64,000 nucleotides of DNA from Archangium sp. Its GTDB lineage: Bacteria; Myxococcota; Myxococcia; Myxococcales; Myxococcaceae. The DNA lies in the NCBI GenBank assembly GCA_047600485.1, contig JASGKS010000001.1, positions 6,720,259 through 6,784,258 on the forward strand. The letters run 5' to 3'. This document shows, one piece after another, positions 19,440 to 41,515 of the stretch; position 1 is the stretch's first letter, and the number at the start of each line of letters is the position of its first letter. The translations under genes were made by a program, and so were the position numbers. A model generated the notes under the pieces. The model had not been told where the DNA came from. It did not search any database and saw only the letters and a list, made by a program, of their open reading frames with translations.

Positions 19440-20390
19440 ATGAAGAAGCTCGCGCTCGCTGCCGTGTCCGTCGCCGTGCTGGCCGTCGTGCTCTGGCCTG
19501 CGTCTCTCCCCGCGGTTCAGCCGCACTCCTTCGTGCCCTTGCCGACGGCGACCACGCCGCTCACCGTGTGCTGGGTCGACACGGGAGGCCTCGACGCTCC
19601 CGCGCGCTACGGAGCTGCGGGGTTGCCGACCGCCGATGCATGGCACGTCACCTCAGCGGCGCTGCTGGTGCGCCACCCGAAAGGCGACGTGCTCATCGAC
19701 GCAGGGCTCTCGCCGAACGCCCAGCACGAAGCGAACGAGCTCGGGGCGTGGAAGCGCTTCGTCTTCTCGCAGACTGCGGGGCGCAATCAGCCGCGACGCT
19801 CGCTCACCGAAGCGCTGCGGCAGCTCGGCGTGACGAAGCTCACCGCCGTGATTCTCTCGCACGCGCACCCCGACCACATGGGTGGACTGGTGGCGCTCCG
19901 TGACGCGCCTGTGTGGCTCGCCGCCGAAGAGAAGACGTTCATCGAGAGTGGCAACACGGTGGTGATTCCCGCGCACGCTCGAGCGGTGAGCGGTCGCATG
20001 GCCGCGTTGAACTTCGAGCGCGTGCCATTCGCGAACTCCGATACGCGGGCCGACGTCTTCGGCGACGGCTCGGTGGTGGTGACACCCGCGTTCGGCCACA
20101 CGCCCGGCAGCATCAACACCTTCATCAATGCTCCCGGCGGGCGGCTGGTGCACGTGGGTGACCTCATCAACCTCCGCGAGTCGCTCACGCGCGAAGTGCC
20201 GAAGTCGTTCGCCATGCGAATGCTCACCGACGAAGACGTGCACGCCACGTCGGAGCAGGTCGCGCGTCTGGTCGAGCTGAGCAAGGCCGACCCGAAGCTC
20301 ACCATTCTCCCCGCGCACGACAGGCCCGGGTGGTCGGCGCTCTTCGGTGACGACGGCCTCGCGGGCGCGCCACCGTGTGTCCAGTGGTGA
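19440..20390 (+). CDS. MBL-fold hydrolase, N-acyl-homoserine-lactonase-like, secreted
   Basis: Signal peptide [28 protein letters not shown] zinc motif. Confidence 0.7.
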
Positions 20391-20454
20391 AGCCGGCGCG
20401 CGTAATACTTCCGAGCTATTTCCGGCTCTCGCCCGCGCAGCTACGAATCGACGG

Positions 20455-21435
<981 letters not shown>

Positions 21436-21438
21436 AGT

Positions 21439-22866
21439 TCAGAAGCGATCGTCGGCCGGCCCGACCGTCGTGACCGGCGGAGTGATGAGCACCTGCTGCT
21501 GGCTGCCCGGAGTGACCGGCAACACCAGCGTGAAGCGGCTGCCCTTGTTCATCTCGCTGGCCACGCGCACCACGCCGCCGTGGCCCTCGACGAAGCTCTT
21601 CACGATGGCGAGCCCGAGGCCCGCGCCGCCGTACTCGCGCGTCGACGACGAATCGACCTGGTAGAAGCTGTGGAAGATCTTGTCGAATTGATCAGCCGGA
21701 ATGCCGACCCCGGAGTCCTCGACGAGAATGCGGTAGCCGGGCGCGTTCAGGTCGGGTTGCTGCTGCACCTCGGTCAACGTCACCGACACCTTGCCGCCCT
21801 TGGGCGTGAACTTCACGGCGTTGGTCAGCAGGTTCACGACCACCTGGCGCAGGCGATCTCGATCTCCGGTCACCATCGCCATGCGCGGCGGCACCTTCGC
21901 CTCGAGAATCACGCCCTTCTTCGCGGTCTGCGGCTTGAGCGAGCTCACCGACGAATTGATCAGCTCCACCGCGTCCATCGGCTCGAAGTTGAGACGCACC
22001 TTGCCCGCTTCGATCTGCGAGATGTCGAGAATGCTGCTGATCAACTTCAGCAGGGTCTCGCCCTTCTCCATGATGGTGCGCACGTAGTCGAGCTGCTCAC
22101 CGTTGAGCGCGCCGGCGAGCCCTTCAGCCAGCATCTCCGAGTAGCCGATGATGCTGGTGAGCGGCGTGCGCAGCTCGTGACTCACCGTCGCGAGGAAGGC
22201 GCTCTTCAGGCGATCGAGTTCCTTCAGCTTGGTGTTCGCGTCTTCGAGGCGCTTGTTCCGTTCTTCGAGCTCGCGGTTGCTGTCGAGCGTCGCCTCGATG
22301 TGCAGCTGCGAGGTGAGGAACATCTTCTGGCCGCCGAACAACATCGTCTGCAGCAGCTGCCCGAAGTGCAGCATCACGCGCGCGATGGTGCCTTCCGGAG
22401 CGCGACGCACCTTCTCGACCAGCGCCTTCGCGTTGCCGATGTCGAAGCCTTCCGAAATCTCGGTCAGCGTGCGTGGCGCGAAGTCGCGCAGGTCTTCGGG
22501 GAAGAACGGGCCGAACACCACGCGGCCGAGCGTGTCGCCTTCCCACATGATGGGCACGATGAGGTACCGCAGCCCCGTGAAGCACGGCACGGTCAACATG
22601 CCCTTGCTCGCGGGAATCAGGTCGGGCTCGAGCACCGGCAACCGCGCGCCGTGCGAGAGCGCGAGCGGCCCGTCTTTCACGCGACCGACCGTCGCCGTGC
22701 AGCGCCGCCGCCCCTCGGGGAACGAGAACACGTAGCCGCAGAAGTCGCCGTTGCCGATCTTGATGTCGGCGATCTTCCCGCCCTTGTCGTCGAACACCTT
22801 GATGCCCACCCGGTACAGCTCGACGAAGCCCTTCACCACCTCGGTGAAGGACTCGGTGTCGAGCAT
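21439..22866 (-). CDS. Cytoplasmic sensor histidine kinase (N-terminal PAS-variant/PocR-like sensor, HisKA, HATPase_c)
   Basis: H-box ATVSHELRTPLTSI. N/G boxes LLTNAVKFT, DSGVGIP, GGAGLGLAIV. No TM segments. The true start is MLDTESF at 22866, and the upstream part of the long ORF is out-of-frame artefact. Confidence 0.85.
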   Translation of the reverse strand: MLDTESFTEVVKGFVELYRVGIKVFDDKGGKIADIKIGNGDFCGYVFSFPEGRRRCTATVGRVKDGPLALSHGARLPVLEPDLIPASKGMLTVPCFTGLRYLIVPIMWEGDTLGRVVFGPFFPEDLRDFAPRTLTEISEGFDIGNAKALVEKVRRAPEGTIARVMLHFGQLLQTMLFGGQKMFLTSQLHIEATLDSNRELEERNKRLEDANTKLKELDRLKSAFLATVSHELRTPLTSIIGYSEMLAEGLAGALNGEQLDYVRTIMEKGETLLKLISSILDISQIEAGKVRLNFEPMDAVELINSSVSSLKPQTAKKGVILEAKVPPRMAMVTGDRDRLRQVVVNLLTNAVKFTPKGGKVSVTLTEVQQQPDLNAPGYRILVEDSGVGIPADQFDKIFHSFYQVDSSSTREYGGAGLGLAIVKSFVEGHGGVVRVASEMNKGSRFTLVLPVTPGSQQQVLITPPVTTVGPADDRF

Positions 22867-22910
22867 CTCGGAGAGCGAGATGCGTCGCTGAAGGACGGAC
22901 TCGCCCTGTC

Positions 22911-23615
22911 TCACGGGCGCGCTCCCTGCCGCGGAGGCAGCACCTTCTCGAGCTCGGTGCCGGTGACGTCGATGTTGGCGAAGACCTGGGTGAGGAATTC
23001 CTTCTCGGTGAGGCCGATGGCCTTGCTCAACGACGCGCGCGCTTCGAGCGAGCGGTAGGCGCTCTGCAGCACCGCGAACAACGTCTCGAGCACGCCGACC
23101 CCGCGAATGGCGATGGCGCCGACCACCGGCTCCTTGCCCTTCTTGCGCGTCTCTTCGATCTCCGCGTCGGTCTTGGTGTCGGGGAGATCTCGCTTGTTGT
23201 ACTGAATGACGATCGGCGTCTGCGCGGGGTCGAGGTTGTTCTCCCGCATGTTCTCCTGCAGGTTCTTCCAGTACGCGTTGTTCTCCTGCGCGGCGGAGCG
23301 GCGGCTGTCGGCGATGAAGGCCACCGCGTCGGCGCCCTGCAACACGATGCGGCGCGTGGCGTTGTGAATCACCTGGCCGGGCACGGTGAACAGCTTCACC
23401 TTCACCTTGAAGCCGTTGGCGGTGCTGAAGAAGACGGGGAGCAGGTCGAAGAACAGCGTGCGGTCGTCGTGCGTTTCGACGGTGAGCAGCCGGCCCCTCA
23501 CCTCGGGGCTGGTCCGCTGATGCACCATCTGCAGGTTGGTCGTCTTCCCCGAGAGACCGGGGCCGTAATAGACGATCTTGACGGTGAGCTCGCGCTGCGC
23601 GTGATTCAGTTGCAC
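22911..23615 (-). CDS. MglA-family Ras-like small GTPase (MglA paralog) with about 40-aa C-terminal extension
   Basis: IVYYGPGLSGKTTNL P-loop, TDRTLFFD (Arg-finger position), YTVPGQV (catalytic Gln), IQYNKRD (G4). Closely parallels M. xanthus MglA. Sits 44 nt upstream of the histidine kinase. Confidence 0.85.
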   Translation of the reverse strand: MQLNHAQRELTVKIVYYGPGLSGKTTNLQMVHQRTSPEVRGRLLTVETHDDRTLFFDLLPVFFSTANGFKVKVKLFTVPGQVIHNATRRIVLQGADAVAFIADSRRSAAQENNAYWKNLQENMRENNLDPAQTPIVIQYNKRDLPDTKTDAEIEETRKKGKEPVVGAIAIRGVGVLETLFAVLQSAYRSLEARASLSKAIGLTEKEFLTQVFANIDVTGTELEKVLPPRQGARP

Positions 23616-23724
23616 GTCGGCGGAGTCTGCGTCCGAACGCGCGGCTCACCAAGCACAACCCTCCACAACCCGATCGGTGCGGTCACACCGTATTGCTGAT
23701 GTCCGAGCGCCACTGTGGCCGTTA

Positions 23725-23741
23725 CGCACACACGGTGTGCG
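23725..23741. promoter_or_regulatory. 7-bp inverted repeat CGCACAC-ACG-GTGTGCG in the MglA-like/GNAT divergent intergenic region
   Basis: Perfect 7-bp arms directly visible. A candidate regulator binding site. Confidence 0.3.
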
Positions 23742-23828
23742 TCATGAAATGTCTGCTCGTGCACGCCGTTGAAGTTGGTGGTTAGGATCAGATCCAACAG
23801 GCCGAGCAGAACTACTTACGGAGAGGCA

Positions 23829-24350
23829 ATGACTGAAAAGCAGCTGGACTCGGCCGGTTCGACTCCCACTCCCCCGATGCCCGTCCCGACCGACTGGAAG
23901 CAGGTGAAGTTCGCGGCGCCGACCGACGAAGACATGAACGCGCTCGCGCAGCTCCGCTCGGGTTCCGACCCGTGGAAGTCGCGCGGCGAGACGCAGGCCG
24001 AGAGCCTCGAGGCACTCACCAAACTTCGCCCGTTCATCTCGGTCGGCAAGTTCAACGGCGGGTTGAGCGGCTACGTGACCATCGAGCGTGACGGCCCGGT
24101 GCCCGGCGCGGCGTACCTGCGCAACATCGTCGTGAAGCCCGAGTTCCGTCAGAAGGGCCTCGGCCACGTGATGCTCGAGCAAGGTCTCTCGATGGCGCGC
24201 GACATGAACCGCAAGACGCTCGCGCTGCGCGTCGACCCGGCGAATGGCCCCGCCGTTTCCTTCTACCGCAAGGCCGGCTTCACCACGGTTGCCACGGTGG
24301 TGTCGAAGAAGAGCGGCAAGCTGCGGCTGTTGATGAGCCGCGAGCTGTAA
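23829..24350 (+). CDS. GNAT family N-acetyltransferase
   Basis: True start MTEKQ with GGAGAGG RBS. GNAT motif RQKGLGHVMLEQ and FYRKAGF. Confidence 0.8.
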   Translation: MTEKQLDSAGSTPTPPMPVPTDWKQVKFAAPTDEDMNALAQLRSGSDPWKSRGETQAESLEALTKLRPFISVGKFNGGLSGYVTIERDGPVPGAAYLRNIVVKPEFRQKGLGHVMLEQGLSMARDMNRKTLALRVDPANGPAVSFYRKAGFTTVATVVSKKSGKLRLLMSREL

Positions 24351-24434
24351 GTCGCCCGCACTCACTCTTCGCGCGGTGCACGAGCGCCCTGATCTCCCAC
24401 GAGGTCAGGGCGTTGGTGTTTCCAAGCTCGTCGA

Positions 24435-25013
24435 CTACTTGAGCGCCTGCGTCTCTTTGTCCTGCGGGAGCGTGGCCTTCGCGAGCTCGAGCAATTTCTT
24501 CCGCGCGGGCTTCATGTCGAACGTGCCCTGCGGCACCCAGCGACCGCCCTGCTTGCCGAGCGCGAACAACACCTCGTTGCACGAGAAGCTCACCACCGCT
24601 TCGAGCGTGTCGAGGCCCACCTGCATCTGGAACGAGAGGTGCGGCACGAAGCGGCACTTCGCGACGTCGGCGTCGAAGCGGTAGCTCTTGTCGTCGTAGA
24701 GCGCCGAGCGCAGCGCCTCGAGCGACTTGGCGTCGAGCTCGTTGCCCGGGTTGCCGCGCACGAAGTCACTCAAGATGGCCTTCGTCGGGTCAGGCCGCAG
24801 CCCGCCTGAATCAGCCACGCGAAACACCTGCACCTTCGTCGCGTTGGCGATGCCGTTGAGCACCGTGTCTCCGAGTGCTTCGCTCACCTTCGGCATCGGC
24901 TCGGTCACCGGCGGAGGCGGAGGCGGCGGCCCCTTCTTCTTCGGCGCCTTCGGTGCCGCGGCTGACGCGACGAACGCGGTGAGGAAGACGACGAGCAGAG
25001 TGAGGCGCTTCAT
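24435..25013 (-). CDS. Secreted hypothetical protein
   Basis: Signal peptide MKRLTLLVVFLTAFVASAAA followed by a PPPPPPP linker. Confidence 0.55.
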   Translation of the reverse strand: MKRLTLLVVFLTAFVASAAAPKAPKKKGPPPPPPPVTEPMPKVSEALGDTVLNGIANATKVQVFRVADSGGLRPDPTKAILSDFVRGNPGNELDAKSLEALRSALYDDKSYRFDADVAKCRFVPHLSFQMQVGLDTLEAVVSFSCNEVLFALGKQGGRWVPQGTFDMKPARKKLLELAKATLPQDKETQALK

Positions 25014-35177: not shown

Positions 35178-35657
35178 TCACTTCGCCGGCGGGAGCAAGA
35201 CCGCGTCGACGATGTGCACGATTCCGTTGCCGGCGCGGGCCGAGCCGAGAATCTGCGCGTCGTTCACGTACGTCTTTCCGTCCTTCACGTGGAAGACGAC
35301 GTTGCCGCCGTTCGCAACGCCCAGCTTCATGCCTTCCTTCATGGAGCGCACTTCGTAGACCGACACCGCCACGTGGAACTTGAGGATGTTCTGGAGCGCT
35401 TCTTTGCTCTCCGGCTTCATCAAGCCATCGAGCGTTCCTTTGGGGAGCTTGTCGAACGCTGCGTTGGTGGGCGCGAACACCGTGAACGGTCCGGCGTTCT
35501 GCAGAGAACGCACGTACTCGGCGGCCTTGAGCGCTGTGACGAGCGTGGTGTGGTCAGGCGAGCTCACGGCGATGTCGACCACCGTCGCGGGAGGTGCGTC
35601 GGCCGCGAGTGTGAACGACGAGAGGAGACAGATGATGGCGAGGGAAGTGCTTCGCAT
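35178..35657 (-). CDS. Fasciclin (FAS1) domain protein, secreted
   Basis: Signal peptide plus FAS1 motifs (TVFAPTNAAF, GIVHIVDAVLLP). Sits 34 nt downstream of nosY. Confidence 0.8.
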   Translation of the reverse strand: MRSTSLAIICLLSSFTLAADAPPATVVDIAVSSPDHTTLVTALKAAEYVRSLQNAGPFTVFAPTNAAFDKLPKGTLDGLMKPESKEALQNILKFHVAVSVYEVRSMKEGMKLGVANGGNVVFHVKDGKTYVNDAQILGSARAGNGIVHIVDAVLLPPAK

Positions 35658-35690
35658 GTGAACCTCCGGGTGCGACGTGAAAGCAGGGCC

Positions 35691-36524
35691 TCAAGCAATG
35701 AGGTCCATGCGCTGCGCTCGACGGAGCGCAGCAAGCGTGGCGATGGTGCCCAGCGCGGCGGGCCAGGCGATGGCGACCGTCAGCGCGAGTGCCGGGCCCA
35801 GCGTGTTGGCGAGCCAGAAGCCGACGGGGCCGAGCACTGACAGCTCGGGGTCGGTGCTCGCCAGAATTCCCACGCGCGCGGCTTCGACGGGGTTGATGGC
35901 CGAGAGCGCGAAGACGAGCTGCGGCGGCAACGAGGTTCGCAGCAGCACGGTGATGAGCAGCACATCGTGGAGCGCCGCGGTGACGACGAAGAGCAGCAGC
36001 GACCACACCATCGCGCGCTCGGCGTTGCGCGCCCAGGTTGAGATGAACAGACCCAGGCCGATGAACGCGAAGACCAGCGCCACGCTGACCCCGACGCTCT
36101 TGAAGGCGATGACGGCCAACCCGGGTTCGGGCTCGACGAAGAACGCGGCGACGAAGCTGCCGATGAGCAGCACGAGCAGCGGGCCGACGAGCACGATGAG
36201 CCGCGAGACGAGCAGCGAGAAGAACCACGTCGAGCGCTTCACCGGCTGGGTGAGCATCAGCTCGCAGAAGCCGCTGGTGCGCGCGCGCACGACGGCAGCG
36301 TGGGTGGCCACCAGCACCACCAACGGAAACACGAGGATGATGGCGTTGGCGAGATTGAGCAGCACTCGCGAGAGACCGGTGAAGCCGAGCACGGTCGACT
36401 CGCGCAGGCCGAACCACACGAAGGCCCCGGCGAGCCCGAGGTAGATCAACCCGGTCAGCGCCACCCAGCGCGAGCGGAGCGCGTCGGCAAGCTCGAGCCG
36501 AAGGAACGCAGCGAAGGGACTCAT
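35691..36524 (-). CDS. nosY: ABC-2 type permease NosY
   Basis: Six-TM ABC-2 permease. Its start ATG overlaps the nosL stop (ATGA). Confidence 0.75.
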   Translation of the reverse strand: MSPFAAFLRLELADALRSRWVALTGLIYLGLAGAFVWFGLRESTVLGFTGLSRVLLNLANAIILVFPLVVLVATHAAVVRARTSGFCELMLTQPVKRSTWFFSLLVSRLIVLVGPLLVLLIGSFVAAFFVEPEPGLAVIAFKSVGVSVALVFAFIGLGLFISTWARNAERAMVWSLLLFVVTAALHDVLLITVLLRTSLPPQLVFALSAINPVEAARVGILASTDPELSVLGPVGFWLANTLGPALALTVAIAWPAALGTIATLAALRRAQRMDLIA

Positions 36525-36949
36525 GGCAACACCTGCTCGGTGCCCGGCCGCGCCTTCTTCGCGACAGCCGCGCGCACCTCGTCGAAGCCCACGCCCTCGT
36601 TGGCCGGGAGGAAGCCGAAGTCCATCGGGGTCTTGCCCGCCGCGAAGCGCGTCTGCGCGGGGTCCACCCACCCTTCTCCACGCGGATCACGGACCCAGCG
36701 CGCGACGACCTGAGGGTGCTCGCGGTCTTCCCACGAGATGAGACAACCGACGTCGTCGAAGAACTTTCGCTGGCCGTTCTCGAGCAACAGCTGCGCGCTC
36801 GGCGCCTTCTCGCTCACCAGCATCGAGCAGTGCGCGCACGCCTGCTTTCCCCACCAGGGTTCCTGCGGAGCGGCCGGCCCGCGCGCGCAAGCGGTGGCGA
36901 GCAACACCACCGCGACGAGCCGATTCCAGGTCATCGCGGAGCACTTCAT
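36521..36949 (-). CDS. nosL: Copper chaperone lipoprotein NosL
   Basis: Lipoprotein signal (LLATAC). CAHCSM and DDVGC motifs typical of the NosL family. Confidence 0.7.
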   Translation of the reverse strand: MKCSAMTWNRLVAVVLLATACARGPAAPQEPWWGKQACAHCSMLVSEKAPSAQLLLENGQRKFFDDVGCLISWEDREHPQVVARWVRDPRGEGWVDPAQTRFAAGKTPMDFGFLPANEGVGFDEVRAAVAKKARPGTEQVLP

Positions 36950-37650
36950 CGGACACCTCCCGGGCGCAGCGTGATGACGTTGTCGACGCTGGCCTGCGCG
37001 CCCCACTGCATGTGTTCGAGCGCGGCGTCCTGCACCACGCGGCCCTCGTCGAGCTGCACCACGCGCTGCACGAGGTGACGCACCTCATCGACGCGGTGGC
37101 TGCACAGCACGAGAATCGACGTCGCGGGCCGCGCGAGCACGTCGTCGAAGAAGGCGTTCCGCGCCGCGGCGTCGAGGTTGGCGGTCGGCTCGTCGCACAC
37201 CAGCACCGGCGCTTCGGCGGTCAGCGCCAGCGCGGCGAGCAGCTTCTGCTTCATGCCGCCCGAGAGGTCGCGCACGCGCGTCTTCGCCACGGCGTCGAGG
37301 TCGAGCCCGAGCCGCCGCGCACGCAACGCACACGCCCCCGGCTCGCGCGAGCGCAGGGCGCAGAACGCAGTGACCAATTCCCGCACCGGCGCGTCGAGCG
37401 GCGGAGCGACCTGGGGCATGCACGCCAGACTGCGCAGGGCGACCTCGGGTTCGCGCGCGACGTCACTCCCGAACAAGGTGACGCGCCCCTCGACGCGCAG
37501 CAACCCACACAGCGCGCGCAGCAGCGTGGTCTTGCCCGAGCCGTTGGTGCCGACGAGAGCCACGCGCTCACCGGGCTTGATGTCGAGCGACACCGCGTCG
37601 AGCGCACGCACGCGGCCAAACGTCTTGCTCACGTTCTGAAAGGAGATCAT
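36946..37650 (-). CDS. nosF: ABC transporter ATP-binding protein NosF
   Basis: Walker A GTNGSGKTT, LSGGMKQK signature, Walker B LVCDEP. Confidence 0.85.
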   Translation of the reverse strand: MISFQNVSKTFGRVRALDAVSLDIKPGERVALVGTNGSGKTTLLRALCGLLRVEGRVTLFGSDVAREPEVALRSLACMPQVAPPLDAPVRELVTAFCALRSREPGACALRARRLGLDLDAVAKTRVRDLSGGMKQKLLAALALTAEAPVLVCDEPTANLDAAARNAFFDDVLARPATSILVLCSHRVDEVRHLVQRVVQLDEGRVVQDAALEHMQWGAQASVDNVITLRPGGVR

Positions 37651-38888
37651 CGCGGCACCTCACGGTGGGGACGCATCGCGGGCGTCGGGTCTTGCAGCAG
37701 CAACGTCGCGCCGAAGTACGGCAACGCCGAGGCCACCGCGTCGTAGAGCCCGAAGGCCGCGGTGCCGTGGAACCAGTGGAGCTCGGGGTGGGCGTCGCTG
37801 ATGCCCGAAGACGCGCGCTTCACCTGGAACGCGACGTCACCCACGCCGTCGGAGTCGAGGTCGTAGCCGGCGTACGCCGCCCAGTGGTTGCCCGCGAAGT
37901 CGATGCCCAGCGCGTCGCCGTTCCCGTCGACCTCGACCAGCGCGTCGTTGTCGAGGAAGTCGTTGTCGGTGAACCGCGCGCCTCGCTCGCTGGAATGGGT
38001 GCGCAGCGCGCAGGCGTTGAGCGCCAGCATGTTCTCTTCGAACACCACCGGCTGCTTCGGGTCGCGCGGCGTGTAGTCGAGGTACAGGCCGGTGGTGTTG
38101 GCGACGATGGCGTTGCGGCGCAGCGTCACTGCGTCGCTTTCCTTGAAGCCGATGCCCATGCCCGCTGGCCCGCGCGCGCCAGACAGCTCGTTGTCCTCGG
38201 CGAGCACGCGGGCCGAGTACATGAAGAAGATGCCGACGGTGTTGCCGCGGAGCACGCTGCGCCGCACCGTCGAGTCGTGCGCGTACATGAAGTGCGTGCC
38301 GTAGCGGCCGCCGGTGATGCGGTTGTCTTCCAGCGTGACGTGGCGCGAGTACCAGACGACGAGGTCGCGCACGCCGCGCACGTCGAGCCGCCGCACCGTC
38401 GAGCCGTGCGCTTCCCACAGCTTCACGCCGTCGCCGCGCTGGTTCTCTTCGATCTCCGCGCGCCCCTCGATGCGGGTGTCCTCGAGCAGACAGGCGTGGC
38501 ACTGCTCGAACGCAATTCCATACAGCGTGTCACGCACCGCGACGCGACGGACGGTGGCGCGCTCTCCGGTGAGCTTGAGCGCGCCGTCTTCGAACGACAC
38601 GCGCGCGCCGGAGCCCTGGAAGGTGACGTCTTCCACCACCACGTCGTCGCCGTGAATGCGCAGGATGGTGGCCTTGCCGCTGCCCTGCAGCACGGCGTTC
38701 TCGCAGCCGTGAAGCGCGAGGCCACGCTTCACCTCGAAGTCACCCTGCACCGTGCCGCCGATCCACACGTCGCGGTCGCTGCCCTCGAGCGCGGCCTTCA
38801 ACGACGCCGCGTCACGGCTGGCGTTGGGAGGGCACGGCGGCGAGAGCGGACCGGCGGCGGTCAGCAGCGTGAGGAGCAGGGCGCTCAC
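37647..38888 (-). CDS. nosD: Periplasmic parallel beta-helix protein NosD
   Basis: Signal peptide plus repeated right-handed beta-helix units (NxxxGIxxxxS-type). Overlaps nosF by 4 nt. Confidence 0.8.
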   Translation of the reverse strand: MSALLLTLLTAAGPLSPPCPPNASRDAASLKAALEGSDRDVWIGGTVQGDFEVKRGLALHGCENAVLQGSGKATILRIHGDDVVVEDVTFQGSGARVSFEDGALKLTGERATVRRVAVRDTLYGIAFEQCHACLLEDTRIEGRAEIEENQRGDGVKLWEAHGSTVRRLDVRGVRDLVVWYSRHVTLEDNRITGGRYGTHFMYAHDSTVRRSVLRGNTVGIFFMYSARVLAEDNELSGARGPAGMGIGFKESDAVTLRRNAIVANTTGLYLDYTPRDPKQPVVFEENMLALNACALRTHSSERGARFTDNDFLDNDALVEVDGNGDALGIDFAGNHWAAYAGYDLDSDGVGDVAFQVKRASSGISDAHPELHWFHGTAAFGLYDAVASALPYFGATLLLQDPTPAMRPHREVPR

Positions 38889-38889
38889 G

Positions 38890-39348
38890 TCATTTCTCCA
38901 CGCTCTTGAGGTAGCTCAAGATGAATGGGAGCTCGGTCTGCGGGTTCACGCCCTGGTTCGGCATCGGCGTGAGGTGCTCGACGAAGGGCTTCTTGGCGGT
39001 CTCGTCGTCTTTGATCATCACGTCGGGGCGCAGAATCATCTTCTTGATCCACGTTTCGTCGCGGCGCGCGGTGACGCCCTTGAGATCAGGACCGACGAGC
39101 TTGCCGCCGCCGATCTTGTGACACGCCGAGCAACCCTTGGCGGCGAACGTCTCCTCGCCCTTCTTGATGTCGGCGGGCGCGGTGCTGATGGTGAAGGTCG
39201 GCACTTCGATCTCCACCTTCGCGGGCGCCGCGGGCTCGGCCGGTGCGGGAGCCGCGACCGCCTGCGGCTCGGGTGATTTGGGCGCTTCGGTCGGCTTTTC
39301 GTTGCACGCGGACAACACGAGTCCCGCGGCGAGGATGATTCGCTTCAT
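38890..39348 (-). CDS. Monoheme c-type cytochrome lipoprotein (clade II nos-associated)
   Basis: Lipobox LSAC. Single CSACH heme motif. The Met ligand is in MILRPDVM. Confidence 0.8.
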   Translation of the reverse strand: MKRIILAAGLVLSACNEKPTEAPKSPEPQAVAAPAPAEPAAPAKVEIEVPTFTISTAPADIKKGEETFAAKGCSACHKIGGGKLVGPDLKGVTARRDETWIKKMILRPDVMIKDDETAKKPFVEHLTPMPNQGVNPQTELPFILSYLKSVEK

Positions 39349-39388
39349 GACTGCTCTCCTGGTGGTGAACGGGTGAGGTGGGAACCGG

Positions 39389-41350
39389 CTACTTCGCCTT
39401 CGGCTTCACCATGAAGTAGCCCATCATCTCGAGGTGCAGCGCCGAGCAGAACTCGGTGCAGTACATCGGGAAGACGCCCGGCTTGTCGGCGACGAACTTC
39501 ACGTTCTCGTGCTTGCCGGGCTCGAGCGACAAGTTGATGCCGTACATGTCGATGGTGAAGCCGTGCACCTGGTCCTCGGCCTGCTCGACCGAGGTGATGT
39601 GCAGGTAGACGATGTCGCCCTCTTCGACCTCGATGCGGTCGGGCGTGAAGTGGCTGCGAATGGCAGTCATGTACACGTTGACCACGTTGCCGTTGCGCTC
39701 GATGCGCTCCTTGCCCGGCGTGACGGCGAACTCGTCCTTCTGATCAGTGTAGGGGTTGGTGCCCATCGGGTAGACCTTCATGGGCGCCAACTTGTCCGCC
39801 TTGATCATCTGCGCGTAGTGCGGCTCGCCGATGCCGATGGGCATGTCGGCCAGCAGCTTCATCTTTTGTCCGTCGATGCCGACCAGCTGGAAGTTCTGCG
39901 GGTAGAGCGGACCGATGTTCGCGAAGCGGTCGATGCTCATCTTGTTCATCGCCACTACGTACTTGCCGTCGGGGCTGACCGTGTCGCCCTCCGCCGCGAG
40001 GATGTGGCCGATGTTGTAGTGAACCGGCAACTTCTCGACGACCTTCAGGGTCTTCAGGTCCCACTTCGCGACCACGCTCTCGATGAACACCGAGGTGTAG
40101 GCGAAGCCCTTGTCGTCGTAGACGGTGTGCAGCGGCCCAAGGCCGATCTCCACCTGCCCGCGAATGCTGTCCTTGAACGGGAGGATGTTGAGGCCGTAGC
40201 TGTCCTTGCCCTCGAACGTTCCCGCCTCGATGAGGTTCTTGATCTTCTCGAAGCGATACACGGTGGCGTGCGTGTCGAGCTTGCCGCCGACCACGATGTC
40301 TTCACCGTCGGGAGTGACGTCGACGCCGTGCGGTGACTTCGGCTCTGCGATGAGCGTGAGCACCTTCTCCGGCCCGGTGACCTCGAGCGGCAGCACCTTC
40401 ACGCCCTTGATGGTCTTCGCCTTGCCTTCCTTCACCAGCGCTTCGGCCTTCTTCCAGTTGATGACGTGGAGGAAGTCGGTGTCGTTCTGCGACGCGCCAG
40501 ACTCGACGGGCGGGTTGCCTTCGAGAATTCCGCCCGTAGCCATCTCGGTGTTGAAGCTGTTGATGAAGATGTAGCCGTCAGACGCGCGCTTGCCGGAGTC
40601 GGCGAGGTCCTGCGTGTACGGCGGCAGCTCGACGCCGAACGACTCGCTCTCGACGATGCGGCCCTTCGTGCGGTCGAACTTCCAGAACATCGCCAGGCCG
40701 CGGTACTTCTCCTTGTACTGGCTGACCGGCACGTACTCGCGGCCCAGCGGCGACGGGTACTGGCTGGTCTCGATGACGTAGTCGGTGTTGGGCGTGACGA
40801 AGGCGCCGCCGTGGTCGGACGCGACCAGCGGGTTGGGCACGATCTGCTTCGTCGCGAAGTCCGACAGGTCGACCACCGCCACGCGCGCGTTCGCCTTGTC
40901 GTTCACGAAGAGGAACTTGCCGTCGTAGTCGCCGTTCATCTCGCTCAGGTTCGGGTGGTGCACGTCGGCCCACGCGAGCTTGCCGCCCTTGTATTGCTGG
41001 CCACCCTCGAGCACCTGATCAGACAGACCGCCGTAGCCGTAGCCCTGCCACGGCTCGGGCGTGAACACGCCGAGCACCTTCAACAACCGCATCGAAGGCA
41101 CGCCGATGGTGAGCACCTGACCAGACTGACCACCCGACGCGAAGATGACGTAGTCGTCCTTCTGCCCGCTGGGCTTGTACGTGAGGAGCGCGGCCTCGAC
41201 GTCGGCTTCGCTCAACTTGCGCTGAGCCATGATGTCCTTGAGGCCCGCGCTGGCTTGAGCGACGGGAGCGGAAGACGGCGTGCCCGGCGTCGAGCCCGAA
41301 GAGCAGGCGCTCACGGACAGAACGACGAGGGCGAGGAGAAGACGTTTCAT
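39389..41350 (-). CDS. nosZ: Nitrous-oxide reductase NosZ, clade II (Sec/lipoprotein type)
   Basis: 653 aa. N-terminal MKRLLLALVVLSVSAC with no twin-Arg. Beta-propeller CuZ His region. C-terminal CuA motif CTEFCSALHLEMMGYF. Strong GGAGG RBS. Confidence 0.95.
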   Translation of the reverse strand: MKRLLLALVVLSVSACSSGSTPGTPSSAPVAQASAGLKDIMAQRKLSEADVEAALLTYKPSGQKDDYVIFASGGQSGQVLTIGVPSMRLLKVLGVFTPEPWQGYGYGGLSDQVLEGGQQYKGGKLAWADVHHPNLSEMNGDYDGKFLFVNDKANARVAVVDLSDFATKQIVPNPLVASDHGGAFVTPNTDYVIETSQYPSPLGREYVPVSQYKEKYRGLAMFWKFDRTKGRIVESESFGVELPPYTQDLADSGKRASDGYIFINSFNTEMATGGILEGNPPVESGASQNDTDFLHVINWKKAEALVKEGKAKTIKGVKVLPLEVTGPEKVLTLIAEPKSPHGVDVTPDGEDIVVGGKLDTHATVYRFEKIKNLIEAGTFEGKDSYGLNILPFKDSIRGQVEIGLGPLHTVYDDKGFAYTSVFIESVVAKWDLKTLKVVEKLPVHYNIGHILAAEGDTVSPDGKYVVAMNKMSIDRFANIGPLYPQNFQLVGIDGQKMKLLADMPIGIGEPHYAQMIKADKLAPMKVYPMGTNPYTDQKDEFAVTPGKERIERNGNVVNVYMTAIRSHFTPDRIEVEEGDIVYLHITSVEQAEDQVHGFTIDMYGINLSLEPGKHENVKFVADKPGVFPMYCTEFCSALHLEMMGYFMVKPKAK

Positions 41351-41391
41351 GTGAACCTCCGGGAGTTGCGAGTCGTGACGGCGCGCTGAAG

Positions 41392-41407
41392 TGCGAGCGA
41401 TGTGCCA
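41392..41407 (-). promoter_or_regulatory. Candidate sigma-54 (-24/-12) promoter upstream of nosZ
   Basis: The minus strand reads TGGCAC-ATCGC-TCGCA. The GG/GC spacing is exact and there is one mismatch to the TTGCA -12 element. The -12 element lies about 40 nt upstream of the nosZ ATG. Confidence 0.45.
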
Positions 41408-41515
41408 GCGCTGATCAGGAGCGCGGAGCGAGCGCAGCGCGTCGATTCGCTGCAGCGCGTGCGCGCGAGCCCGAATTCACGCAACCAGTGCGCACCGGCA
41501 TGTTCCGCCGCCGGT

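Follow-up and report, generated by a model that had tools for sequence, protein, structure and literature searches.

The DNA analysed here is a stretch of 64,000 nt (the window) from contig JASGKS010000001.1 of assembly GCA_047600485.1, an uncultured, Archangium-like metagenome-assembled genome (MAG) deposited as Archangium sp. It contains a gene for a small GTPase of the MglA family, which is very probably orthologous to SofG (MXAN_6703), the Ras-like orphan of the MglA type known from Myxococcus xanthus. Judging from its junction with the following gene, the sofG ortholog heads a bicistron with translational coupling, in which the second gene codes for a soluble PocR-type histidine kinase. 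The original prediction for this DNA had described the gene as that of an MglA paralog; its assignment to the MglA family and the lack of a linked mglB gene were borne out, whereas the gene does not represent a new paralog, but the known SofG type.

Relatives of the GTPase were collected at several levels of similarity. A contig scan using one genome per species yielded 56 related loci, nearly all of them from Archangium or Myxococcaceae MAGs, with Myxococcus sp. Y35 as the one cultured strain (78% identity). A protein database search returned 8000 relatives, of which the best 120 were examined, and a second search starting from a 62%-identical relative (L052) listed a further 120 proteins of 203–293 aa. 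Another search at the level of representatives of 50%-identity clusters yielded 5977 relatives at E ≤ 0.001. Conservation per column was derived from an alignment of 116 sequences spanning 50–89% identity, and gene junctions were surveyed in 61 loci including the window, covering GTPase identities of 55–97%. The sequence of the window GTPase itself is deposited as MFT3712034.1 under the description "MAG: GTPase domain-containing protein [Archangium sp.]".

The assignment as SofG is based on alignments, a tree and gene order. The window GTPase aligned without gaps over 222 aa with the M. xanthus protein representing the SofG cluster (P0124), showing 77% identity with the tail included, versus 46% identity over 180 residues with MglA. 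A comparison with both proteins had been proposed along with the original prediction, and its result settles the question in favour of SofG orthology. In a neighbour-joining tree calculated from the G-domain core with 100 bootstraps, the protein grouped with the Myxococcus SofG proteins and apart from MglA in 99 of 100 replicates. The identity of the P0124 cluster itself follows by elimination: according to Wuichet and Sogaard-Andersen 2014 (Table S2; PMC4316618), every Cystobacterineae genome contains exactly three group-1 MglA members, namely MglA with 195 aa, which is encoded beside mglB, a single orphan of 230–241 aa, e.g., MXAN_6703 (SofG), and, as the third, a PATAN-linked protein with about 370 aa. 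The orphans listed there include LILAB_12945 (239 aa), STAU_1215 (237 aa), COCOR_07291 (241 aa) and A2cp1_4477 (230 aa), while SofG of M. xanthus is annotated with 298 aa and given with 239 aa in the text (PMC4316618). Because the three paralogs have distinct lengths, the P0124 cluster should correspond to MXAN_6703/LILAB_12945 and thus to SofG. The 239-aa GTPase of Myxococcus sp. Y35 shares a 90%-identity cluster with P0124, which also includes AAL56599.1, annotated as "MglA-like protein [M. xanthus DK 1622]", as well as a 239-aa protein of M. fulvus HW-1. The genes of strain Y35 are arranged in the order PilT-like ATPase with a long N-terminus, GNAT acetyltransferase, (divergent) GTPase and PocR kinase. 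This matches the order of MXAN_6705, a PilT paralog whose long N-terminus is disordered (PMC13584747), MXAN_6704, a GNAT protein (PMC4048283), and MXAN_6703, which further supports the SofG identity.

The gene of the window has a GC content of 0.92 at third codon positions (GC3), and its GTG start codon is preceded by just 10 open codons in frame; therefore, the N-terminus is fixed and an extension is impossible. The long annotations of SofG in strain DK1622 (281 aa for P0123 and 298 aa for MXAN_6703) add 42–59 N-terminal residues which have no counterpart in the window protein or most orthologs. Because the frame of the window gene closes 10 codons upstream and these residues are missing from most orthologs, the 239-aa version of SofG with a TTG start is probably right and the longer DK1622 annotations appear over-extended.

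The G-domain carries all the elements expected for a functional member of the family. In a phmmer search against all PDB chains, the window GTPase matched only MglA proteins, with E values of 1e-49 for M. xanthus MglA (6hjh, 5ymx and 6h17) and 5e-48 for the Thermus protein (3t12), and its residues 3–186 aligned without gaps to residues 4–187 of MglA. In this register, R52, T53 and Q81 correspond to Arg53, Thr54 and Gln82 of MglA, and all three are invariant across the 116 homologs. The same applies to residues G18, P19, L21, S22, G23, K24 and T25 of the P-loop and to N140 and K141 of the G4 motif. The G3 motif lacks the Asp of the DxxG consensus, as is typical for MglA. The gapless register together with the translated motifs therefore confirms the earlier claim that both catalytic residues, the intrinsic Arg and the catalytic Gln, have been kept. 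The Pfam model Arf recognised the protein with 24.5 bits (cutoff 22.3), and an AlphaFold2 (AF2) model based on the 116-sequence alignment reached a mean confidence (pLDDT) of 86.6, with the MglA structures 6h17 and 6izw as top Foldseek matches (TM 0.88–0.90). By its motifs and predicted fold, the window GTPase is an intact group-1 MglA-family member with an MglA-type catalytic apparatus.

The protein continues for 40 residues beyond the end of MglA, which falls at about residue 194 of the query. This C-terminal extension, which had been noticed in the original prediction as a possible interaction or localisation element, is a true part of the protein. The more than 230 homologs listed are 223–290 aa long (the list from the L052 search spans 203–293 aa), and the best 120 of the 8000 relatives show 80–91% identity at 97–100% query coverage with lengths of 232–290 aa. 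Within the extension, E204 and F207 are invariant in the 116 sequences, followed by L208 (92%), F212 (89%) and G201 (83%), while residues 217–234 are variable and often gapped. The BLASTP alignment with SofG covers the tail up to residue 222, and the motif GL[ST]ExEFL characterising the tails of the SofG group is present in the extension of the window protein. In the AF2 model, helix alpha5 (residues 175–194) is followed by helices at 196–200, 204–212 and 221–224, with pLDDT values of about 90 over residues 191–220 and only the last four residues disordered. The tail thus comprises about 25 residues that are conserved and probably folded, and ends in a variable stretch. An ORF-calling artefact as its source was rejected from the tail length of the homologs, its conservation and the fixed position of the stop codon.

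The stop codon of the GTPase gene overlaps with the GTG start codon of the kinase gene. In the junction survey, start/stop overlaps between both genes were observed in all 61 loci, down to GTPase identities of about 55%: 58 of them contain a 4-nt overlap of the type NTGA (42 GTGA, as in the window, 15 ATGA and one TTGA), two show TAATG, and one (L057) has an 11-nt overlap according to the gene call. A stop/start overlap of this kind is as strong an indication of co-translation as sequence evidence can provide. Between the GTG start and the first ATG of the kinase gene, the peptide ESVLQRRxSLxEMLD is encoded, which is conserved across the loci. From this peptide and the overlap it follows that the kinase starts at the GTG at position 22914 and not at the ATG at position 22866. 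In a tblastn survey of the 56 loci, all those of sufficient length had the PocR kinase directly 3' of the GTPase gene in the same orientation, including the four loci at 61–62% identity, where the GNAT gene is gone. Three more distant proteins with 53–55% identity to the window GTPase showed the same arrangement by independent gene calls and Pfam. A scan of positions 21000–24500 revealed no terminator-like site between the two genes on the minus strand; the two terminator-like hits obtained are both on the plus strand and at chance level. The kinase consists of PocR, HisKA and HATPase_c domains with an intact H-box, and a sequence scan detected no hydrophobic stretch resembling a membrane span. 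The original prediction had correctly described the upstream side, with a divergent GNAT gene at a distance of about 210 bp (213 bp as measured), but had overlooked the PocR kinase at the overlapping stop codon downstream. The kinase gene of M. xanthus is expected to be MXAN_6702 from the numbering of the neighbours. A library search retrieved no paper containing both "PocR" and "MglA" and none mentioning MXAN_6702, although the SofG paper itself might describe the operon. The neighbourhoods of group-1 genes have been described as not highly conserved, unlike those of groups 2 and 3 (Wuichet 2014, PMC4316618).

Among the 5977 relatives in the representative-level search, only about ten 50%-identity clusters had alignments reaching into the tail. 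One of them, represented by P0300, is 44% identical to the window GTPase and includes an Acidobacteriota-labelled MAG. In one of its relatives (L063), the GTPase stop codon forms an ATGA overlap with the gene for a protein of 198 aa, and in another (L062), the partner gene starts 5 nt downstream of the GTPase gene and codes for a protein of 218 aa. These partners were recognised as PocR proteins by Pfam with 29.1 (L063) and 24.2 bits (L062; cutoff 23.9), contain no kinase domains according to Pfam, and align to the N-terminus of the window kinase through the helix following PocR. Because the stand-alone PocR gene of the 44%-identity clade is still coupled via ATGA, the conserved partner appears to be the PocR domain, and the pairing of GTPase and PocR in such distant lineages suggests an ancient module. 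The next gene in both loci (L062 6741-9308 and L063 2187-4847) is convergent and codes for a large Ser/Thr protein kinase with an FGE-sulfatase domain, which may represent a conserved third component in the stand-alone-PocR clade. In two other clades with proteins of 216–224 aa, the tail motif FGLSE.DFL is present, and the GTPase gene is followed by ribBA and not by a PocR gene; therefore, the tail and an adjacent PocR gene do not strictly co-occur. Most of the 50%-cluster representatives scoring just below the SofG-like clade (P0281–P0419) are proteins of 300–800 aa, in which an N-terminal MglA-like domain (query residue 3 to about 195) is followed by a long C-terminal part. They probably belong to the PATAN-linked MXAN_2693 type, and at 50% clustering their diversity far exceeds that of the SofG clade.

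In several lineages (loci L057 8116-12714, L060 6528-11100, L041, L047 and L055), the pair of GTPase and PocR kinase genes is directly followed by a dif-like chemosensory cluster in the order AIRS-family or REC gene, methyl-accepting chemotaxis protein (MCP) with HAMP domain, CheW, REC and CheA. The difA, difC, difD and difE genes of M. xanthus are MXAN_6696, MXAN_6694, MXAN_6693 and MXAN_6692, seven genes from sofG. No chemosensory genes were detected in the window by tblastn with che proteins.

The divergent GNAT gene upstream of the sofG ortholog is present in L001–L050, L055 and L056, and its ortholog MXAN_6704 is required for development in M. xanthus (PMC4048283). In an alignment of the intergenic spacer from 13 loci, including Myxococcus sp. 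Y35, the sequence GGTTAGGATC was unchanged in all 13, while the rest of the spacer diverges. It includes TAGGAT and precedes the GNAT ATG by about 40 nt, and may represent a -10 promoter element of the GNAT gene or the site of a regulator. On the side of sofG, a conserved TTGGTG is followed after a 17-nt spacer by CAGACT (23624-23652, minus strand), ending 8 nt before the GTG; the latter hexamer reads CACAAT or GAGACT in other loci. If it were a promoter, the sofG mRNA would be nearly leaderless, which would be odd for a GTG or TTG start. A scan of positions 21000–24500 for sigma-70 promoters called nothing, including this candidate.

No Roadblock/LC7 gene was recognised by Pfam (Robl_LC7) among the 8 neighbouring genes or 10 small ORFs elsewhere in the window, in line with the original prediction that no mglB gene accompanies the GTPase; a divergent Roadblock protein evading Pfam could be hidden among the four small ORFs without any hit. 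For group-1 MglA proteins, an mglB gene within four genes is typical but not obligatory, since 59 of 449 members are orphans (Wuichet 2014, PMC4316618). Two ORFs upstream of the GTPase gene also match no Pfam family.

[quoted passage not shown] The conserved Arg was reported to matter for the GTPase activity of SofG in vitro (Wuichet 2014, PMC4316618), while the regulation of SofG and the reason why it occupies just one subpolar bactofilin patch were stated to be unknown in a 2014 review (PMC4085708). By orthology, the SofG protein of the window would cycle between the GTP- and GDP-bound forms, hydrolysing GTP with its own Arg and Gln, and may be stimulated by the unlinked MglB from the mglBA operon. 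It would join a subpolar BacP patch and help PilB and PilT to reach the cell pole in pilus-dependent motility. From the gene arrangement, SofG would be made and act together with the PocR domain of the kinase, most likely by a direct contact linking the nucleotide state of SofG to the output of the kinase. The direction might be either way, with the kinase reading the nucleotide state of SofG or PocR regulating SofG. The expectation in the original prediction that the protein can be activated by a GTPase-activating protein (GAP) agrees with Kanade 2021, which is quoted in later papers for MglB being a GAP for SofG as well, but differs from Bulyha 2013, as cited in PMC4316618, according to which MglB does not help SofG.

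Compared with known systems, the window protein resembles M. xanthus SofG most closely, which is likewise an orphan group-1 MglA-family GTPase of about 235–239 aa with an intrinsic Arg finger (PMC4316618, PMC4085708). Besides the 77% identity including the extension, both share the divergent GNAT gene and the downstream PocR kinase (as seen in strain Y35). They differ in that the PilT paralogs MXAN_6705/6706 and the dif genes are located near the Myxococcus gene, but not near that of the window, whose product is known from its sequence. MglA (MXAN_1925) shows the same fold and catalytic design, with a gapless core containing the P-loop, the equivalents of Arg53, Thr54 and Gln82, TVPGQ and NKxD, whereas it is only 46% identical, consists of 195 aa without a tail, and is encoded by a gene co-transcribed with that of the Roadblock GAP MglB; no Roadblock gene adjoins the window gene, which is instead coupled to that of a PocR kinase. 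An identity with canonical MglA was rejected. The nearest analogy for the arrangement is the four-gene actinobacterial conservon (CvnA kinase, CvnB Roadblock protein, CvnC and the MglA group 2 GTPase CvnD), in which an MglA-family GTPase and a histidine kinase are also encoded in one operon without a response regulator. However, CvnA is membrane-bound with a HAMP domain and an LPxR tail, whereas the window kinase is soluble with a PocR sensor; in the group 2 GTPase, the Arg finger is missing and the G4 motif is of the NxFD type, compared to R52 and NKRD in the window protein; the gene order differs, and neither a Roadblock nor a CvnC gene is present at the window locus. Membership in the conservons was rejected because every defining feature fails at this locus. 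In eukaryotic Ran, likewise a small GTPase, a C-terminal helix lies against the G domain when GDP is bound; the extra helical element of the window protein is predicted to be ordered as well, and Ran chains were among the weaker Foldseek matches. The tails are unrelated in sequence, and the likeness is an analogy only.

The assignment as SofG has to be weighed against two other explanations. If the gene coded for a separate, unrecognised paralog distinct from both MglA and SofG, the missing MglB and the missing PilT paralogs and dif genes would fit. Such a paralog appears very improbable in view of the high identity with SofG through the tail, the common clade with SofG in the tree, the GNAT and PocR-kinase synteny common to the window and Myxococcus, and the single orphan of this size in each of the surveyed Cystobacterineae genomes. 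That the protein is an ordinary MglA whose tail arose from faulty ORF calling or a misread stop codon can be practically dismissed: tails of similar length occur throughout the listed homologs, two of its residues are invariant in a confidently modelled segment, the stop position is pinned by its conserved overlap with the start of the kinase gene, and the core itself is only 46% identical to MglA. Several points nevertheless count against the SofG reading and the functions attached to it. The identity of P0123/P0124 with MXAN_6703 was concluded by elimination and from synteny in a different Myxococcus species, and the PilT paralogs and dif genes flanking sofG in Myxococcus were not detected in the window by tblastn with the Y35 PilT-like and che proteins; therefore, the wider sofG neighbourhood is not conserved. 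A role in pilus polarity is proposed solely from orthology, Bulyha 2013 and Kanade 2021 disagree on the stimulation of SofG by MglB in the form in which citing papers report them, and a gene overlap proves co-expression but not contact, so that binding between SofG and the kinase is putative.

A further-reaching explanation is that the main task of SofG is to serve as the G-protein partner of the PocR kinase, with the sorting of the pilus ATPases as one downstream readout. PocR would then be either an effector reading the GTP state or a dedicated regulator similar to a GAP or guanine nucleotide exchange factor (GEF), taking the place of an adjacent MglB, and the pair would constitute a two-component pathway with G-protein input, analogous to the actinobacterial conservon. 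The overlap in all surveyed loci over the whole range of GTPase identities, the retained ATGA overlap with a kinase-less PocR protein at 44% identity, the position of the pair at the head of MCP, CheW, REC and CheA clusters in several lineages and the precedent of GTPase-kinase systems in the conservons all speak for this possibility. We would put it forward only tentatively, as the interaction of SofG and PocR is putative and presumed from the gene arrangement, a single-sequence AF2 model of the PocR domain reached a pLDDT of only 31.9, the kinase goes unmentioned in the SofG work as far as it is cited in later papers, and the occurrence of the tail motif in the ribBA clade without an adjacent PocR gene argues against the tail as a simple PocR-docking element. 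In its general form, the proposal says that a SofG-like GTPase and PocR may constitute an ancient coupled two-gene module, in which PocR would be the dedicated physical partner of the GTPase (effector or regulator) and SofG the input or output of a G-protein-linked two-component pathway. In Myxococcota, PocR is part of a histidine kinase; it stands alone in the 44%-identity clade, and in some lineages the pair heads a Dif-like operon. We would at present rather doubt than assert this proposal.

The coordinates of the features in the window are compiled in Table 1. Downstream of the kinase gene, a convergent gene codes for a sigma-54 enhancer-binding protein, which lacks an N-terminal receiver, GAF or PAS domain and whose AAA+ domain begins at residue 44; it is adjoined by genes for a metallo-beta-lactamase-fold protein and a LysR regulator. 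None of the 56 related loci contains any of these three genes, not even the one with 97% GTPase identity (L001), and the region downstream of the kinase gene therefore differs in the genome of the window. Farther away, the window contains a nitrous-oxide reductase cluster, which suggests a capacity for N2O reduction in this Archangium MAG.

Table 1. Features of the window around the sofG ortholog and elsewhere (positions of the window; Pfam E values where available).
Feature	Position	Strand	Basis
sofG ortholog: small GTPase of the MglA family (group 1), 234 aa, starting with GTG	22911..23615	-	ORF and MglA alignment
G1/P-loop GPGLSGKT, residues 18-25	23541..23564	-	translated coordinates
Switch I with R52 (intrinsic Arg finger) and T53 (coordinating Mg)	23457..23462	-	gapless MglA register; translated coordinates
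G3/switch II TVPGQ with catalytic Gln81	23373..23387	-	MglA register, conservation, translated coordinates
G4 NKRD, residues 140-143, guanine specificity	23187..23198	-	translated coordinates
C-terminal extension, residues 195-234, missing from MglA	22914..23033	-	conservation, AF2, SofG alignment
Conserved core of the extension, residues 196-216, LSKAIGLTEKEFLTQVFANID	22968-23030	-	per-column conservation
GTGA, GTPase stop (TGA) overlapping kinase GTG start	22911..22914	-	junction survey
Cytoplasmic PocR-HisKA-HATPase_c histidine kinase, 491 aa	21439..22914	-	Pfam, revised start
PocR domain of the kinase	22339-22866	-	Pfam 5e-19
HisKA of the kinase	22003-22206	-	Pfam 7e-21
H-box His246 of the kinase, H-box intact	22177-22179	-	
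HATPase_c of the kinase	21511-21867	-	Pfam 1e-30
Divergent sofG-GNAT intergenic region, 213 bp	23616..23828	.	gap to GNAT ATG
Invariant GGTTAGGATC in the sofG-GNAT spacer	23780-23789	+	13-locus alignment
Divergent GNAT acetyltransferase, MXAN_6704 ortholog	23829..24350	+	Pfam Acetyltransf_1 9e-14
Sigma-54 enhancer-binding protein, convergent on the kinase	20347-21435	+	Pfam
Metallo-beta-lactamase-fold protein and LysR regulator, adjoining the sigma-54 activator			Pfam
Nitrous-oxide reductase cluster	35178-41476	-	Pfam
NosZ-like protein (nos_propeller and cupredoxin/COX2)	39389-41476	-	
Cytochrome c of the nos cluster	38890-39405	-	
NosD	37647-38915	-	
ABC ATPase of the nos cluster	36946-37659	-	
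ABC-2 permease of the nos cluster	35691-36686	-	
Fasciclin protein of the nos cluster	35178-35690	-	

As regards the GTPase itself, SofG has been rediscovered; work on this protein dates back to 2013, and little is added to what is known of it. The part that may be new is the conserved coupling of the GTPase with a PocR kinase, which was not found in the literature searched, together with the corrected start codon of the kinase in the window obtained from the junction analysis. Given the overlap in every lineage examined and the clade with stand-alone PocR proteins, the PocR kinase represents a concrete candidate for a partner of SofG. If the two proteins indeed act as a module, this would supply the missing regulator of SofG and imply a protein-binding role for the PocR "sensor" domain.

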